Virus record (IMG/VR): IMGVR_UViG_2778261177_000004
Location: 1-45,510 of that record
DNA: 45,510 nt
DNA from: a virus
Lineage: Duplodnaviria > Heunggongvirae > Uroviricota > Caudoviricetes
Strand: one strand, 5' to 3'
Shown: piece after piece, positions 5,213 through 44,079 of the stretch
Position numbering within the stretch: the stretch's first letter is position 1
Layout of the letters: each line of letters starts with the position of its first letter
Position numbers and translations under genes: made by a program
The notes under the pieces: generated by a model
Told to the model about the DNA's origin: nothing
The model's input: only the letters and a program-made list of their open reading frames with translations
The model's database searches: none

Positions 5213-5659
5213 TTATCCCTCGACCTGTTCAATGGTCATGAGCAAGCTGTATCGCTTACCTTTGAATAAGGTGTCCTGTTGAGTGCAAACAACCCCAAAA
5301 GCCTGATCCTCTGCATCTACGAGAACCAGCGTATTGAAATCGTAAGGTGTATCGTCCGGCATCGTTTCTTGTGGAAAAGCGGCATTAATCGTAATGACAC
5401 CATCGAGGCTGGAAAGAATGAGATTGGATTCAGCAAAATGCTGTGCATCACTTAACTTGAAGTCGAGCGGAATATCAGAAATAGTCCAGCCACCAGCACT
5501 ATTTACCGTCACAAGATCTGACTTGCACCAATAAGCCTTTGTCATAACAAAACGCTCACCCCTGCCGATTGCAGACTCTGCACGGCGAGAGTAGTAGTAA
5601 GAAAGGAGTTGCGCCTTGTAAATACTTGAATCGCTTTGAGATTTTAAAGTTTCAGCCAT
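5213..5659 (-). CDS. tail fiber-associated / baseplate protein (position of P1 R), function uncertain
   Basis: 148-aa ORF whose stop abuts the tail fiber start; assignment by synteny only. Confidence 0.4.
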
Positions 5660-21736: not shown

Positions 21737-21840
21737 GGTTAAACCCTAAATTCGGGCGCGGCGTGAAGATTCTTTTGACGAGGTGACAATACTCACTTTG
21801 TTATTTAGTCAATAGCATTAGCAAAATAATTTTCTTTAAC

Positions 21841-21891
21841 AAAACTGTGTTGCTATGATTTAATCTTAGTTTTCTAACACAATCATTAGAA
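21841..21891. promoter_or_regulatory. divergent promoter region with operator-like inverted repeat (AAAACTGTGTT ... TTCTAACACAATCATTAGAA)
   Basis: Shares the TGTGTTAG / CTAACACA motif with the palindromes at 29930-29979 and 44009-44038. Confidence 0.35.
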
Positions 21892-27445: not shown

Positions 27446-28288
27446 TTAATTGAGCGTGGCTATAATGTCGTTAGCTATCATTCGCGTTGATGCTTTACAG
27501 GATACAGAGCGACGGGATGGCATAGGATACACCTTGAAGCCATTGCCAACGTAAAGTTCGCGAATGTTAGGCGCACCACTGTTTGTTATCACAATTTTCG
27601 CTCCGCGTCTGTGGGCATCCACCAGCAGTGACACCAGCCGTTGTTGATCTTCAAACCTAAAGCTATGCCCTGAGTAATTTGTAAATCCGGTAGTGTCGGG
27701 CAATGGTTCATAGGGGGGATCGCAGAAAATCACATCATCATTCCCGGCAGCCTCAATTACACCAGCAAAATCGCCGGACACAAATTCCGAATACTTTGAA
27801 ATATCGTCAGCCAGGAACGCCTCCATTTCCGCGAGAGGGAAGTGGGGTGATTTCTGCTTTCCATATCCGACGTTGAACTCTCCTTTACGGTTATAGCGAG
27901 TGACGCCATTAAAACAATGACGATTGAGATACAGGAACGCCGCTGCATGGTGAAGGGAATCATAAGCACCATTGTTGAATGCATTGCGAACATTCAAAAA
28001 TGCATCAGCAGAGTTGTAATCCTGAAAAAAACGATATGCCAGTGTGATAAGAGAATGCCCTTCACGCTGCAATGTCTGATAGAAGTTAATCAGGTCATTA
28101 TTGATATCGTTCAGCAGGTTGCTTTTAAATCCGGCATTAGTGAAAACAGCGCCACCTCCAACGAAAGGTTCTATCAACCGTTTTCCGTGGGGCAGGTGTT
28201 CGAAGATAATGGGCAGTGCAGAAAATTTGCCGCCGACCCACTTAAAGACGGGGCGATCAAATTCGTCCTCCGAGCGAATACGTCGCAT
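27446..28288 (-). CDS. dam: DNA adenine methyltransferase (Dam, N6A-MTase)
   Basis: Motifs FKWVGGK, EPFVGGGAV and DPPY. Start set at the ATG at 28288; the track ORF extends to 28480. Confidence 0.8.
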   Translation of the reverse strand: MRRIRSEDEFDRPVFKWVGGKFSALPIIFEHLPHGKRLIEPFVGGGAVFTNAGFKSNLLNDINNDLINFYQTLQREGHSLITLAYRFFQDYNSADAFLNVRNAFNNGAYDSLHHAAAFLYLNRHCFNGVTRYNRKGEFNVGYGKQKSPHFPLAEMEAFLADDISKYSEFVSGDFAGVIEAAGNDDVIFCDPPYEPLPDTTGFTNYSGHSFRFEDQQRLVSLLVDAHRRGAKIVITNSGAPNIRELYVGNGFKVYPMPSRRSVSCKASTRMIANDIIATLN

Positions 28289-28355
28289 ATGGCTGATAGT
28301 GGCTTCCGCCGCAGGACGATGATTGTCGCTATAAGAAATAAATTTAGCACCAATA

Positions 28356-29162
28356 TCAGCCACGGATTCCCTCCTTATTTGCTTCAAATACAGCTCTTGC
28401 AAAACCGTAAGGTGTCGCGCTACGAAAATTCGCTCTTTCAGGTCCTGGCGGTGCCTTGTGTATTCGGTTGTCTGGATCACCTAACGACTCGTCGATTCGC
28501 GGAGTTGGCATGATGAATCCTTGTCCGCTCCACAGGCATGTTTTTTTGGTGTAATTGTCTTCCTTGCAATATGCAGTGAAGTGATAAGGATGGAATATGT
28601 GATCAGGTTTACGCCAGAATGTCGATATTTGGCTGACCGGGTTTTCAATCATGTACGGGCAACCAATCATCTTTGCAATGTCGTAACACTGCCAGACAAC
28701 CTGCATTGCTTTGAACTGGAAAACCGGATCTTTTTTCGCTTTATCTGCGAACCAGCGTGCGCCAGATACAGCCAGGTCAGTACATGGAGGGAAACCGGCT
28801 AAAAATACAACTCTGTGCAAATTTTTCCGAAGGAAATTGTAGACCTCATCACTGTCAATAATTGCGCTGATACGTGTGAGTACAGCACCTGACTCCATCA
28901 ATTGGCTGCCGGACTCCTGGTGTTGCGGATCGACAATGACTGCATCAATGCCGTGTTCCAGCCAGGGGGAAACCATATTCCCTGTATAATCACAAAGACT
29001 CACCGCCAGCGGTCGGTTATTAATGCTCTGCTTCACCGCCAATGGCCTCCACCAGCGAGCTAAACATCGCGGATAATTCGCTTGTGAACAGAATGAAGTC
29101 AGCATCAAATCGCTGGGCAACATCTTCACGGTCGATGTCATCGTTCTGGTCATAGAGATCAT
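28356..29162 (-). CDS. DNA (cytosine-5)-methyltransferase-like protein (short; start uncertain)
   Basis: Motif IV-like GFPPCTDLAVSG and motif VI-like ENP; motif I is degenerate. The ORF start overlaps the rdgC 3' end. Confidence 0.45.
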   Translation of the reverse strand: MISMTRTMTSTVKMLPSDLMLTSFCSQANYPRCLARWWRPLAVKQSINNRPLAVSLCDYTGNMVSPWLEHGIDAVIVDPQHQESGSQLMESGAVLTRISAIIDSDEVYNFLRKNLHRVVFLAGFPPCTDLAVSGARWFADKAKKDPVFQFKAMQVVWQCYDIAKMIGCPYMIENPVSQISTFWRKPDHIFHPYHFTAYCKEDNYTKKTCLWSGQGFIMPTPRIDESLGDPDNRIHKAPPGPERANFRSATPYGFARAVFEANKEGIRG

Positions 29163-29925
29163 CGCAAAACGTCAGTGCTTTGATGCTCATGTCATCGTTT
29201 AACCTGAAGGTCGCGCGGTCCTGCCAGTTTATTGCAACTGTTGTTGCAACTTTTCCGGCTTCAATATGAGTCATTATTTCCTCTGACTGTAGGTCTACTT
29301 TCTTGCAACGAACTGCGCCGCCGTCATCGAACAGAGATTTCAATATGGCTTCTTCGCCTGCTTTAAAGCCTTGAGGAAATGTTGACTTGAACCATTCGGT
29401 CATAGTCATTTCGAGCGGTTCTATCGGCGTGAATGGAATCACTGGCAGGCTGCCAAGTGATTTACGTAAGAGCGCCAGCATTTCTTCTGCTTTTCTGGCG
29501 CTGGAAGCTTCAACGAAGACCAGATAGTTGTCGCGATCAATAAGGATTCGCGACAATGATTTGCGAGTGAATGCGCGAGGCAACAAAGAGTGGAGAACTT
29601 CATCCTTCAGGGTGTTTTTTTCCGACTTCTTCAGCTTACGAGATTGCTCATTTTCGAGCTTTTCCACTTTTTTCTGCACTTCCTCCTTAATGACATGAGA
29701 GGGCAGGAGCTTAATTTCTCGCTGTTGCTGGAGAAGTAGAAAACCGTGGTATTCATGGATCAGGTTGTCAGCCAGAACCGGCACCCATCCGACTTTTGCC
29801 ATTTCTTGTGATGCGCATGGAGTGAATGTGAATTGGCTTAAGGCATCACTAACGGTGGTTGAGTCCAGTTTAATTTCGCGGGCAAGGCGATAGACGTATA
29901 TGTTTTTAAAGGCGACTAATCTCAT
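29020..29925 (-). CDS. rdgC: recombination-associated protein RdgC homolog
   Basis: Collinear similarity to E. coli RdgC (recalled from memory): VYRL, FTPC, VLHSLLPRAF, LALLRKSLGSLPV, EDIDRED.AQRFDADFIL. ATG at 29925 chosen over the TTG at 29934. Confidence 0.85.
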   Translation of the reverse strand: MRLVAFKNIYVYRLAREIKLDSTTVSDALSQFTFTPCASQEMAKVGWVPVLADNLIHEYHGFLLLQQQREIKLLPSHVIKEEVQKKVEKLENEQSRKLKKSEKNTLKDEVLHSLLPRAFTRKSLSRILIDRDNYLVFVEASSARKAEEMLALLRKSLGSLPVIPFTPIEPLEMTMTEWFKSTFPQGFKAGEEAILKSLFDDGGAVRCKKVDLQSEEIMTHIEAGKVATTVAINWQDRATFRLNDDMSIKALTFCDDLYDQNDDIDREDVAQRFDADFILFTSELSAMFSSLVEAIGGEAEH

Positions 29926-29929
29926 GTTT

Positions 29930-29979
29930 TGCAAAACTGTGTTAGAAAATAAAACTCAATTATCTAACACAGTTTTGCA
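29930..29979. promoter_or_regulatory. 50-bp palindrome with perfect 17-bp arms (TGCAAAACTGTGTTAGA ... TCTAACACAGTTTTGCA); candidate operator or regulatory hairpin
   Basis: Lies between the spike gene stop and the rdgC start, 5 nt from the rdgC ATG, which has no obvious SD. Shares the TGTGTTAGAAAAT motif with other sites. Confidence 0.5.
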
Positions 29980-29984
29980 TTTTG

Positions 29985-30662
29985 CTATCCCTTCACAAAG
30001 GAGAAATTGCTCGCTGTTGCTTTTAGCGCGCCACCAGCTTTCAGGGCTATATCACCATCAGCGGCGACGGTTACATTGCTGCCTTTTACATTAACGTCTC
30101 CATCAGAGGATACATTGGTTTTGCTGCTTGATTTGACGTTAACCTCACCTCCAGCATTAAGCACTATATTCGCCGGGCCGATTATGTAAATCTGGCCGGA
30201 TTCGTTCATCCCTATCCTTGATCCTGCGGCGGTGTTTGCTATTTCATAGCCACCGCCAGCCGTTCTGACCTCAAGGATATTGTTTCGGTGAATAACAAAA
30301 TCTTCAGTCGCCGAAAACTGGGGGCGGGCAGGAGCACCATCAACTTCTTCTGGCGACCATCCACTTCCTTGTCCGGAGGCTTCTGGAGGCACATTTGGTA
30401 CGCCTCCTGGGGCATCCTGCGCCGCACCAACGATTAAAGGTCGGCGCGTGTCTATCCTGCCTTTAGCATCCAGATAAGGAAATTCGACCCAGACTAAATC
30501 GCCGCTGACTGTAGGTGTAAAGGCGTTACCGATAGGCATTTGATACTCTGCCCATGGGAGGTCTTCATCCGGTACACCGTTCCAGTCAGGCAGTATGCGG
30601 ACCTGCGCTCGCATAAGTCCGGCAGGGTGTTTGGTCCCTACGATTTGCGCTCTGCGTTTCAC
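29985..30662 (-). CDS. baseplate central spike protein (gpV / gp45 / gp5 OB-fold-like)
   Basis: 225 aa; N-terminal OB-like region (RAQVRILPDWNGVPDEDLPWAEY...GDLVWVEF) and C-terminal Gly-rich beta-helix-like repeats. Confidence 0.55.
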   Translation of the reverse strand: MKRRAQIVGTKHPAGLMRAQVRILPDWNGVPDEDLPWAEYQMPIGNAFTPTVSGDLVWVEFPYLDAKGRIDTRRPLIVGAAQDAPGGVPNVPPEASGQGSGWSPEEVDGAPARPQFSATEDFVIHRNNILEVRTAGGGYEIANTAAGSRIGMNESGQIYIIGPANIVLNAGGEVNVKSSSKTNVSSDGDVNVKGSNVTVAADGDIALKAGGALKATASNFSFVKG

Positions 30663-36359: not shown

Positions 36360-36552
36360 AACAGTTCCTCACAGTCATAACCTGGGGGAAACTGTATACA
36401 GGGTGTGAAATGCGAGAAACAGACAGGCCACCAGTTCAGGGGGATGTGGTTCATAAATCCCCTCATTGGTGACAAGTGACTTTCATTAATCTTTATGCGG
36501 GGGCCAGCTTCATTTGCTGGCATTAGATTAAAAATTAAACGGAGTGAATGAC

Positions 36553-40739: not shown

Positions 40740-40877
40740 AACCCCTCCTTTCCCTTATCTATAACCGCTTTCTTTTTTTCTGTGTATGTTAAAAGTAGAA
40801 GCGGTTTTTACCTTTTGTAATATATATAGTGTCTAAAACTAACTTTGGCACTATATATGGCATGATATCTATGTTTT

Positions 40878-40920
40878 AAAGACACAAAAGCTCTGTTTTA
40901 ACAGAGCTTTTGTGTCTTTA
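40878..40920. repeat. perfect 43-bp palindrome (19-bp arms, aaagacacaaaagctctgtt / aacagagcttttgtgtcttta) in a highly structured intergenic region
   Basis: Perfect inverted repeat; additional inverted repeats nearby at about 40763-40807, 40822-40858 and 40949-40997. Confidence 0.6.
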
Positions 40921-41065
40921 ACTTGATCATTTTCTCGCTGAAGTGTATGTCAGGCTTAGCTCATAATCAAGTTGCTTCCAAGCTAAAAATGAGCTGGCTC
41001 CCTGAAACACTAAGAGCGGGGTGTTTCATTTATTAGCGTTGGGCCTGACGGTGTGTAGGTGAGTT

Positions 41066-41418: not shown

Positions 41419-42360
41419 TTAACTAACAATCCAGTCGGTCGCTGCTACATCTTCTGGCTGTAAATCAATCGCACAGATTTTGCCGTCGCGAATGGTGCGC
41501 CAGTTTTTCCGTGAGCCTCTTTCGGGCCATACCCAGACACTTTCAGGCCAGGATGCTCGACGGCATACGGTTGCATACCCTGTTTTAATCTTCTCTCTGG
41601 CGGTATGCAACGACAGGTTTGCCTTTGGACTTTCAGGCACAGGATGGTGAATGGCCTGAAATAGCCCCATCCTGGGATGATACCAGCGTTTGTTACGTGG
41701 TTCTGCCTCCGACATAACCTGCTTAAAGGCTTTCCGGAAGGGGGCCAGGGCCACAATGGAGCGTCTCGCGAGCAAACCATCGGGAGTTAAAAACTCATGT
41801 GTATCGGTGGGAATCCGATACGCATTGACCAGGTTACGGCATTTGGCTTCAGTCAGGCCGCATTTTGCCGCTAACTGGCGGTAGCTAATGTAGCCTTCCG
41901 GAATATTGCCTTTCTTTATTTGCTCGACGGTTTCAGCGACTTTGGACACTTGTGCCGATACTTCGGCTACCTGGGCATTAACGGCGTTGATCCGGCGTTC
42001 ATGCTCAAGATGCATTTGCGCCATTTCGGCCAAGATTTCGGCTTTTGATTTTAACGGTCCCCTGGCATTCTCCAGTTCGCGCCAGCGGTCCACCAGCCGG
42101 GCGGTGAATTCGGGAGAGAGCTGCGCGACGACAATGATGCTATCGCGCTTGCCTTGTTCGCCTTCAAAGATGTAAGCCTTGGAAAATCGACGAGGGCCAA
42201 CTGATTGTTTATTTTCAATTTCCTCAATTTGAGGAAATTGAATGACACCACCTTTAGTTAATACTTCAATGGTACGCTTCACATTATCATGACGCTTACC
42301 TACCAGTTCCGCGATCTCAATACTGGTCATTGTCGCTTTTTGAGAGATGGACAGATTCAT
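41419..42360 (-). CDS. ant: antirepressor (Rha/Ant-like N-terminal domain)
   Basis: 313 aa; N-terminal MTSIEIAELVGKRHDNVKRTIE is typical of the Rha/antirepressor family; translationally coupled (TGATG) to the upstream small ORF, as in P1 icd-ant. Confidence 0.65.
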   Translation of the reverse strand: MNLSISQKATMTSIEIAELVGKRHDNVKRTIEVLTKGGVIQFPQIEEIENKQSVGPRRFSKAYIFEGEQGKRDSIIVVAQLSPEFTARLVDRWRELENARGPLKSKAEILAEMAQMHLEHERRINAVNAQVAEVSAQVSKVAETVEQIKKGNIPEGYISYRQLAAKCGLTEAKCRNLVNAYRIPTDTHEFLTPDGLLARRSIVALAPFRKAFKQVMSEAEPRNKRWYHPRMGLFQAIHHPVPESPKANLSLHTAREKIKTGYATVCRRASWPESVWVWPERGSRKNWRTIRDGKICAIDLQPEDVAATDWIVS

Positions 42361-43056: not shown

Positions 43057-43387
43057 TTTGACACCCCCAGCGCGAGTAAAGAATGCAGATTATCGCGTGA
43101 GTGGCGGACAACGAGTGATGGGAAAAGACAGTAGCTGTTCATAGTGTAGTGACTCCTTGCTTTCGGAGCCGCCATCGACTGTTCCACGGTCTGGTGGCGG
43201 CGCAATAAAGGTTGGAACACCGTGAGTCAACGGGGGCTTTTCAGCCACCTATATTGCACCGCCATTGGTATGGCGGCGGCAATCATACGAAAAACCAAAC
43301 GGTTTGTCTCAAAAAGTTGACCGGTGTACCAATCGGTTGTGAATGTACAACGGCGAATCTCACAATTCAACTTAAAATGTTAGAAAA

Positions 43388-43963
43388 TTAATTTATTAAT
43401 TCAGTCACCATCTGATACAACGTCATTTCATCAGCATTGTGCCGCCTGAAATCTGCTTTGCCGCCTATTTTTCCATCAGCATGAACAGGAACCAACCAGG
43501 GGTATTGCTCGCGGATCTCTGCTGGCGCTGCGTGTTGATGGTGCCATTTACACAAAGGGAGGACGTATTTATGCGCGTTCTCTGCTGTTCTTCCGAAGAT
43601 GTGGTGCAGGGATACCACAGGGCTATGCTGTCCGTGCATATGGCAGGCAATGCAGGGGAGAGCACCGATGGCAGTTTGTATCCGGCGCTCATCTGCTGTG
43701 AGTGTTCTGCCTTTCAGGCCGCGTGACGCGCGAGTTTTTTTGACAGGAGCAGAAGCGGCCTTCTCTTTTCTTCGCTGTTCATATTGCTTCGCTTTTTCAA
43801 TTTTCTTTTGCCGATATTCAGGCGATGCGGCTTTTTCTCGCGCACGCTGCTGCTGGCGTTGAGCTTGCTGAAGACGCTTTGCCCTTTGTTCCTCCCGCCA
43901 TTTCGGATCAGCCAGTTTTTGCAGGGCTTTTTGTGTCTGTTTCTCCCAATAGCTTTGCTTCAT
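43388..43963 (-). CDS. ref: Ref-like HNH endonuclease (P1 recombination enhancement function homolog)
   Basis: Strong similarity to P1 Ref (recalled from memory): KLADPKWREEQ, GALPCIACHMHG, VSLHHI.GRTA, LPLCKWHHQHAAPAEIREQYPWLVPVHADG. Start at the ATG at 43963 by alignment. Confidence 0.85.
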   Translation of the reverse strand: MKQSYWEKQTQKALQKLADPKWREEQRAKRLQQAQRQQQRAREKAASPEYRQKKIEKAKQYEQRRKEKAASAPVKKTRASRGLKGRTLTADERRIQTAIGALPCIACHMHGQHSPVVSLHHIFGRTAENAHKYVLPLCKWHHQHAAPAEIREQYPWLVPVHADGKIGGKADFRRHNADEMTLYQMVTELIN

Positions 43964-44008
43964 AGAAATACCCGGTTTGTCTACATCGCCGCTATGGTTG
44001 ATCAAATA

Positions 44009-44038
44009 TGTTAGAAAATCAAAATTGATTTTCTAACA
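44009..44038. promoter_or_regulatory. 30-bp near-perfect palindrome (TGTTAGAAAATCAAAATTGATTTTCTAACA); candidate repressor operator between ref and a divergent operon
   Basis: Centred about 60 bp upstream of the ref ATG and about 55 bp upstream of the divergent small ORF; motif also at 43378-43390, 29930-29979 and 21841-21891. Confidence 0.5.
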
Positions 44039-44079
44039 CAAAATGAAGATACTTTTTTCAGACGCTATATCAGGAGGTC

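Follow-up and report, generated by a model that had tools for sequence, protein, structure and literature searches.

Between the last gene of a tail operon and the first gene of an operon encoding an RdgC homologue and DNA methyltransferases, the window, that is the whole stretch of 45,510 nucleotides analysed here, carries a 50-bp palindrome. The features of the locus are the following.

29930..29979: palindrome, with a putative bivalent operator core at 29938-29971 and 8-bp outer arms
29938..29956 (+): half-site proximal to rdgC, TGTGTTAGAAAATAAAACT (ATTTTCTAACACA on the rdgC strand); matrix score 25.5 bits
29953..29971 (-): half-site distal to rdgC, TGTGTTAGATAATTGAGTT; matrix score 22.3 bits
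29959..29964 (-): GATAAT, putative -10 hexamer of the rdgC promoter, proposed from its invariance in relatives
29930..29937: left outer arm, TGCAAAAC, which pairs with 29972-29979
29972..29979: right outer arm, GTTTTGCA, followed on the plus strand by TTTTG
29020..29925 (-): rdgC, homologue of P1 hrdC and first gene of its operon (Pfam RdgC, E 1e-100)
27446..28976 (-): cytosine-methylase-like and Dam-like methyltransferase genes, downstream of rdgC (open reading frames; exact start codons uncertain)
29985..30662 (-): baseplate gene, homologue of P1 gene 5 and last gene of the upstream late tail operon (list of open reading frames, D6 annotation)

As described in the initial annotation, the palindrome has perfect 17-nt arms, TGCAAAACTGTGTTAGA (29930-29946) and TCTAACACAGTTTTGCA (29963-29979), with 16 bp between them; the complete sequence is TGCAAAACTGTGTTAGAAAAT-AAAACTCA-ATTATCTAACACAGTTTTGCA. 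Using a repeat finder, the arms could be extended to 21 nt with one mismatch (95% complementarity) around an 8-nt centre, the 17-nt arms and their 16-bp gap being the inner part of this same feature. It ranks second in length among the close inverted repeats of the window. The ATG of rdgC, on the minus strand, is at 29925-29923, and the palindrome therefore ends 4 nt from the start codon, not 5 nt as given initially; the stop codon of the baseplate gene lies 5 nt from the palindrome. The earlier remark that rdgC lacks a recognisable Shine-Dalgarno sequence was borne out, as none is visible in GTTTTGCAAAACATG in the window. In phage D6, the counterpart of rdgC is annotated as 'similar to P1 gene hrdC', and the genes D6_64 and D6_63 (cytosine methylase and adenine methylase, after rdgC) as 'similar to P1 dmt'.

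The region covered by the window shares 99.5% identity with non-mobilizable E. coli plasmids of ~90 kb, of which NZ_CP104667.1 is an example, and 75% with phage D6, a P1-related plasmid prophage. Judged by sequence comparison, the window represents a phage-plasmid that resembles D6 and is related to P1. Phage-plasmids of the D6-like group are frequent in both E. coli and Salmonella, and some of them carry resistance genes. To our knowledge, their immunity circuit has no experimental map.

The core of the palindrome consists of two inverted copies of a 19-bp asymmetric site with consensus TGTGTTAGAAAATTAAnnT, which was built from 31 sites. Throughout the window, the 13-mer TGTGTTAGAAAAT is matched eight times with at most two mismatches, against 1.5 matches expected, and none of 100 shuffles reached eight; two of these matches (15365 and 16443) are probably due to chance. 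With a 19-bp weight matrix, six half-sites scored 22-28 bits, compared to a maximum of 20.4 in 100 shuffled windows. These six strong half-sites make up four loci, all of them intergenic in the window. Recurrence of the motif at 21841-21891, 43378-43390 and 44009-44038, as noted initially, was thus confirmed by the matrix, every locus lying between genes. Besides the palindrome itself, the loci and the gene that two of them flank are as follows.

21863..21881 (-): putative single operator in the spacer between the capsid gene and an orf52-like gene; 27.6 bits
43376..43394 (+): putative single operator at the 3' end of ref, position of P1 Omat; 27.4 bits
44007..44040: putative 34-bp bivalent operator, position of P1 Oref; 27.0 and 28.4 bits
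43388..43963 (-): ref, RecA-dependent nuclease, with putative operators on both flanks (Pfam RecA_dep_nuc, E 6e-36)

A decayed partner half-site is found at 21846-21858, beside the site at 21863-21881. The bivalent site near ref is composed of half-sites 44007-44025 (+) and 44022-44040 (-) and is located upstream of both ref and the divergent orf88/DUF4406 operon.

For analysis at the level of complete genomes, NZ_CP104667.1 and D6 were assembled from pieces and then scanned for the motif, yielding about 18 copies in the former and 15 in the latter. The motif is clearly enriched between genes in the relative D6: 12 of the 15 matches are intergenic in a genome that is 89.8% coding (binomial P = 4e-10), and shuffled intergenic DNA gave 0.4 matches. 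Such enrichment in a complete genome is what the initial annotation had set as its test, and the result favours its reading. Most loci consist of a single site, and inverted pairs spanning 34 bp occur at rdgC, ref, lpa, the ppp/pdcB spacer and downstream of pmgS. In NZ_CP104667.1, the motif is present 17 nt upstream of the ATG of a c1 homologue, as well as upstream of lpa, repL, an icd-antirepressor cassette, ref, pmgS and rdgC and at the 3' end of ref. Phage D6 carries it at matching places, including the spacer between gene 5 and rdgC. The GenBank record of D6 annotates no operators, and full-text literature searches for the motif and for D6-like operators returned nothing relevant.

Several other features of the window were recorded along the way. 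An icd-plus-Rha-type antirepressor cassette is located at 41419-42360 (-; Pfam Phage_pRha). D6-type elements have a second such cassette beside repL, and a strong motif copy lies upstream of the repL-side cassette only (NZ_CP104667.1 78426-80025). At 40876-40921 there is a perfect 46-bp palindrome with 22-nt arms and a 2-nt centre, TTAAAGACACAAAAGCTCTGTT/AACAGAGCTTTTGTGTCTTTAA, and a second inverted repeat (40822-40858) is situated 20 bp upstream of it, both between two minus-strand genes; this palindrome does not have the C1-type motif and possibly serves a different regulator as its operator. Of the Chi sequence GCTGGTGG, the window contains 21 copies (for example at 5490, 10854, 30031 and 44106), against 1.3 expected, with 15 of them on the minus strand; it is likewise enriched in the relatives L042 and L043.

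P1 itself contains 22 dispersed 17-bp asymmetric operators with consensus ATTGCTCTAATAAATTT (PMC8546580), and its ref and dmt are lytic genes under C1 control (PMC4713147). The following operators, taken from the P1 RefSeq annotation, were used for comparison.

Oref: upstream of ref
Omat: 3' end of ref
Odmt (Op68): upstream of uhr-hrdC-dmt
Olpa: upstream of lpa
OrepL: upstream of kilA-repL
Oc4: upstream of c4-icd-ant
OpmgRa/b: upstream of pmgR-pmgS
Obanab (Op72ab): bivalent, upstream of ban

The motif of the D6-like elements is found at the corresponding places, and the rdgC palindrome therefore corresponds in position to P1 Odmt, as do the sites on either side of ref in the window to Oref and Omat. 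Beyond the TTAGA core, the window motif does not match the P1 consensus. With only TTAGA in common, the two sets probably differ in specificity within the same kind of system.

In both systems, the sites are asymmetric and mostly single, sometimes forming overlapping inverted pairs as incomplete palindromes, and number about 15-22 per genome, at the promoters of c1, lpa, repL, c4-icd-ant, ref, mat and dmt (PMC8546580). A bivalent pair spans 28 bp in P1, as in Obanab, and 34 bp in the window type. Like Odmt, the rdgC site would be a C1-type operator, directly in front of an operon that encodes an RdgC homologue and then one or more DNA methyltransferases, and is part of a dispersed genome-wide set. 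However, Odmt consists of one 17-bp site, ATTGCTCTAATAAATAT, which abuts the -35 hexamer, whereas the window has two inverted 19-bp sites of different sequence, with a putative -10 hexamer inside one half-site and an additional covarying outer stem. The upstream neighbour also differs, being the tail operon in the window and upfC in P1. Phage D6 shares gene order and motif places with the window, but the outer arms and the spacer of its rdgC palindrome are wholly different in sequence, and a GGTGA Shine-Dalgarno sequence, lacking in the window, precedes its rdgC. On the basis of these analogies, the rdgC site would work like P1 Odmt and Obanab, using a different recognition sequence.

The c1 gene lies outside the window, and a C1-family repressor is encoded both by the near-identical plasmids and by contigs that share the same rdgC. 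The C1 homologue of NZ_CP104667.1 is located beside a cre-like recombinase and a pacB-pacA-lpa block, as in P1. It is 345 aa long, compared to 283 aa for P1 C1, to which the D6-type repressor is 21% identical (tblastn E 1.6e-5); both proteins match phrog_1678 over their full length. D6 annotates its own copy, which is 80% identical, as 'prophage repressor, similar to P1 C1', and IMG/VR contigs with a 100%-identical RdgC also encode a D6-type C1 at 99% identity. A search of viral contigs with C1 returned near-identical copies only, and a search of genome contigs with RdgC only an unrelated Methylococcales homologue.

Among plasmids, tblastn revealed C1 lineages at 80%, 66-69% and about 30% identity, and the motif changes with them. 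Elements with a C1 at 69-100% identity retain the core TGTTAGAAA; in the 69% lineage, represented by E. fergusonii pEF-4, it is kept at syntenic places and is among the most over-represented 9-mers. The window-type motif is absent from Citrobacter freundii pCfr13-1 (L043/L044), with a C1 that is 29.5% identical. Instead, GCCTTAGAATTA occurs nine times in 35 kb of this plasmid at syntenic intergenic positions, including copies in front of c1, on the 3' side of cre, in the divergent spacer beside ref, close to pmgS and in the gene 5-rdgC spacer, where it is directly followed by CATAAT. Operators of the P1, D6 and pCfr13 types thus share the TTAGA core and have lineage-specific flanks. At the level of lineages, this is how the determinant of specificity in a family of heteroimmune repressors would be expected to behave. 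Plasmid pK91 is a mosaic remnant with two sites only: in this conjugative IncFIB multiresistance plasmid of Salmonella Typhi (L041), a D6-type cre-c1 fragment with the operator upstream of c1 lies beside IS26.

Sequences upstream of rdgC were compared across 26 IMG/VR loci, D6 and the plasmid, together representing 15-16 distinct sequences. Invariant in all of these are the proximal half-site, TTTTCTAACA, and GATAAT in the distal half-site, while the 8-nt spacer and the flanks are variable. The T of GATAAT is present in one of 18 half-sites, at the rdgC site only, the family otherwise having GAAAAT, and GATAAT is retained in L028 as well, in which the distal half-site has otherwise decayed. 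This conservation suggests that GATAAT acts as the -10 hexamer in the promoter of rdgC. The hexamer proposed as -35 element (TAGCAA/TAGAAA, at 17-18 bp) is poor, and a scan for consensus sigma-70 promoters found none at any of the four loci, so that the promoter at rdgC is one that we infer. As no enrichment of -35 hexamers was seen 16-18 nt upstream of the half-sites, a -10 role was no longer assumed for half-sites in general and was retained at rdgC alone. Relatives of the D6 and L010 types (the L010 to L034 loci, at about 1480-1500) carry GGTGA 4-5 nt upstream of the rdgC ATG.

Taken together, the sequence comparisons and the analogy with P1 make it probable that the palindrome serves a D6-like plasmid prophage as a bivalent C1-type operator, placed over the promoter that drives its early rdgC-dcm-dam operon. 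From the motif family, its statistics and positions, the C1 homologue in the relatives and the motif change with C1 lineage, we infer C1 as the binding protein, the position of the promoter and repression itself. The proposal in the initial annotation of a regulon controlled by one DNA-binding protein, a C1-like repressor, is supported in that the motif is dispersed, almost exclusively intergenic in the complete genomes, located at P1 C1 operator positions and variable with C1 lineage. According to this model, two inverted 19-bp recognition sites of the C1-type immunity repressor would lie over the rdgC(hrdC)-dcm-dam promoter, one half-site holding the putative -10 GATAAT and the other covering the likely transcription start, which would fall within or close to the proximal half-site. 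While the element persists as a plasmid prophage, repressor on both halves would block RNA polymerase and the operon would be off; repressor bound to either half-site would occlude polymerase. Upon inactivation of the repressor, the operon would be switched on together with ref, lpa, repL, icd-ant and c1 itself.

Outside the half-sites, an unexpected feature emerged from the comparison of relatives: over 5-8 bp the sequence differs between lineages and complementarity stays. The outer arms, left and right, are the following.

Window lineage: GCAAAAC / GTTTTGC
D6 type: CCATT / AATGG
L010 type: CCAAT / ATTGG
L032: TTCAA / TTGGA

A gap was misplaced in the outer arm by the MAFFT alignment, and pairs were therefore counted on a gap-free 44-nt extract. 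All five outer pairs are changed on both sides, 95% of cells are paired, none of 500 shuffles reached the covariation score, and pairing collapses to 34-49% in slid registers. The inner stem is conserved as sequence rather than structure, its lone internal mismatch being kept in every lineage. When the palindrome is folded as RNA, a 50-nt hairpin of -26.2 kcal/mol (z = -6.1) is obtained; the long hairpin folds in each lineage except L028, with bulges and single mismatches tolerated in several lineages. In the window, the rdgC AUG is 4 nt outside the stem, and in D6-type relatives GGTGA is inside its right outer arm. By inspection, the other bivalent operators (ref, lpa, pdcB, pmgS) have no outer-arm extension. 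An Rfam search of the region matched no family, giving only sub-threshold eukaryotic miRNA-like hairpin matches.

Different identities of the element as a whole were weighed against a C1-type operator. A late activator had been put forward in the initial annotation as the other candidate for the binding protein; the motif would then be a late promoter element and target of the late-gene activator Lpa, in line with the copy between the capsid gene and a divergent gene and with the presence of an Lpa homologue in relatives. However, the extracted P1 late-promoter sequences consist of a -22 box, AAGTGACTT, then 4 nt, then a -10 hexamer, and separate promoters of this type, distinct from the motif, are present in the window: one at 36473-36491 (+; ACAAGTGACTTTCATTAATCT), near the gene 26 homologue, and a weaker one at about 21785-21803 (-; AAAGTGAGTATTGTCACCT), upstream of the capsid gene. 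The late-activator reading therefore fails and was rejected; the P1-type late promoter element is absent at 29930-29979, the motif precedes the early or immunity genes lpa, c1, repL and ref, and we attach next to no likelihood to this role. It is very unlikely, too, that the site is an intrinsic terminator on the plus strand, which would keep transcripts antisense to rdgC-dcm-dam from running into the tail operon. A T-run does follow the stem on the plus strand in all lineages (TTTTG, TTTTCT or TTTTTTCT), corresponding on the opposite strand to a conserved run of A that follows the stop codon of gene 5, but no plus-strand gene or predicted promoter feeds the site, the nearest plus-strand genes ending about 2.6 kb upstream, and the minus (gene) strand continues with AAACAUGAGA, which has no U-run. 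Moreover, the stem is A+U-rich, a terminator scan made no call here or at the sites of the other three loci, and the dispersed single half-sites would be left unexplained. As for an operator bound by a regulator other than C1, for instance a small helix-turn-helix protein of the element, the link to C1 relies on positional analogy and lineage-level co-variation, neither of which is protein-specific; motif change with lineage is compatible with any other lineage-specific regulator and does not by itself single out C1. Nevertheless, P1 C1 operators defined by experiment are matched at seven positions or more, among them a site immediately upstream of c1, and we know of no other regulator with such a dispersed operator set in P1-like phages, which makes this alternative highly improbable.

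Binding of the repressor does not explain the covariation of the outer arms. Besides the plus-strand terminator, two readings of it can be considered, the first being an added role of the site as an RNA hairpin. The initial annotation had suggested a hairpin gating rdgC translation as the alternative to a regulon. Most family members are single half-sites, so a hairpin cannot account for the family, but as an extra property of the rdgC site, where the outer arms covary, the suggestion keeps some merit. The site would then combine an operator with a full 50-nt hairpin formed in minus-strand read-through from the gene 5 tail operon, which could, for instance, stabilise 3' ends, serve as an RNase III site or prevent rdgC from being translated off these late transcripts, and transcripts from the internal promoter, carrying one arm only, would be translated. 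Covariation of the outer 5 bp in four lineages, the lack of an extension at the other bivalent operators, the stability of the hairpin and the position of GGTGA in the D6-type arm all speak for such a role. On the other hand, the inner stem behaves as a conserved sequence with a persistent mismatch, the window lineage has no Shine-Dalgarno sequence to sequester and its AUG is outside the stem, L028 lost the hairpin and kept GATAAT and the proximal half-site, and no Rfam family is matched; on balance, we find this role rather doubtful. Template-switch mutation can keep palindromes perfect without selection, which also counts against it. In the second reading, the outer arms could be functionless by-products of hairpin-templated (quasi-palindrome) mutation on a pre-existing inverted operator pair. 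Such a process yields covariation without conserved sequence, as seen here, and the tolerated bulges and single mismatches fit as well. Yet the other bivalent operators of the same elements are not extended, and the T/A mismatch (GATAAT versus GAAAAT) is uncorrected in every lineage; this origin is somewhat unlikely.

A more specific proposal is that of a two-level site, being at the DNA level a bivalent repressor operator with an embedded promoter, and forming at the RNA level a hairpin only in late tail-operon read-through, which would insulate or gate expression of rdgC and the methylases. Although we judge this to be unlikely, it would imply, if true, that the operon is translated when transcribed from its own early promoter, but not as part of late read-through. 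The covarying outer stem offers a small, concrete case of an operator that is possibly also constrained as a hairpin.

Returning to the C1-type operator, the consensus TGTGTTAGAAAATTAAnnT provides a testable map of the repressor regulon as well as parts for engineering D6-type elements. With a shared TTAGA core and lineage-specific flanks, immunity groups should therefore be predictable among P1/D6-type plasmids. Finally, the sequence comparisons suggest that repressor control of an RdgC-methyltransferase early operon would be conserved from P1 to its distant relatives.
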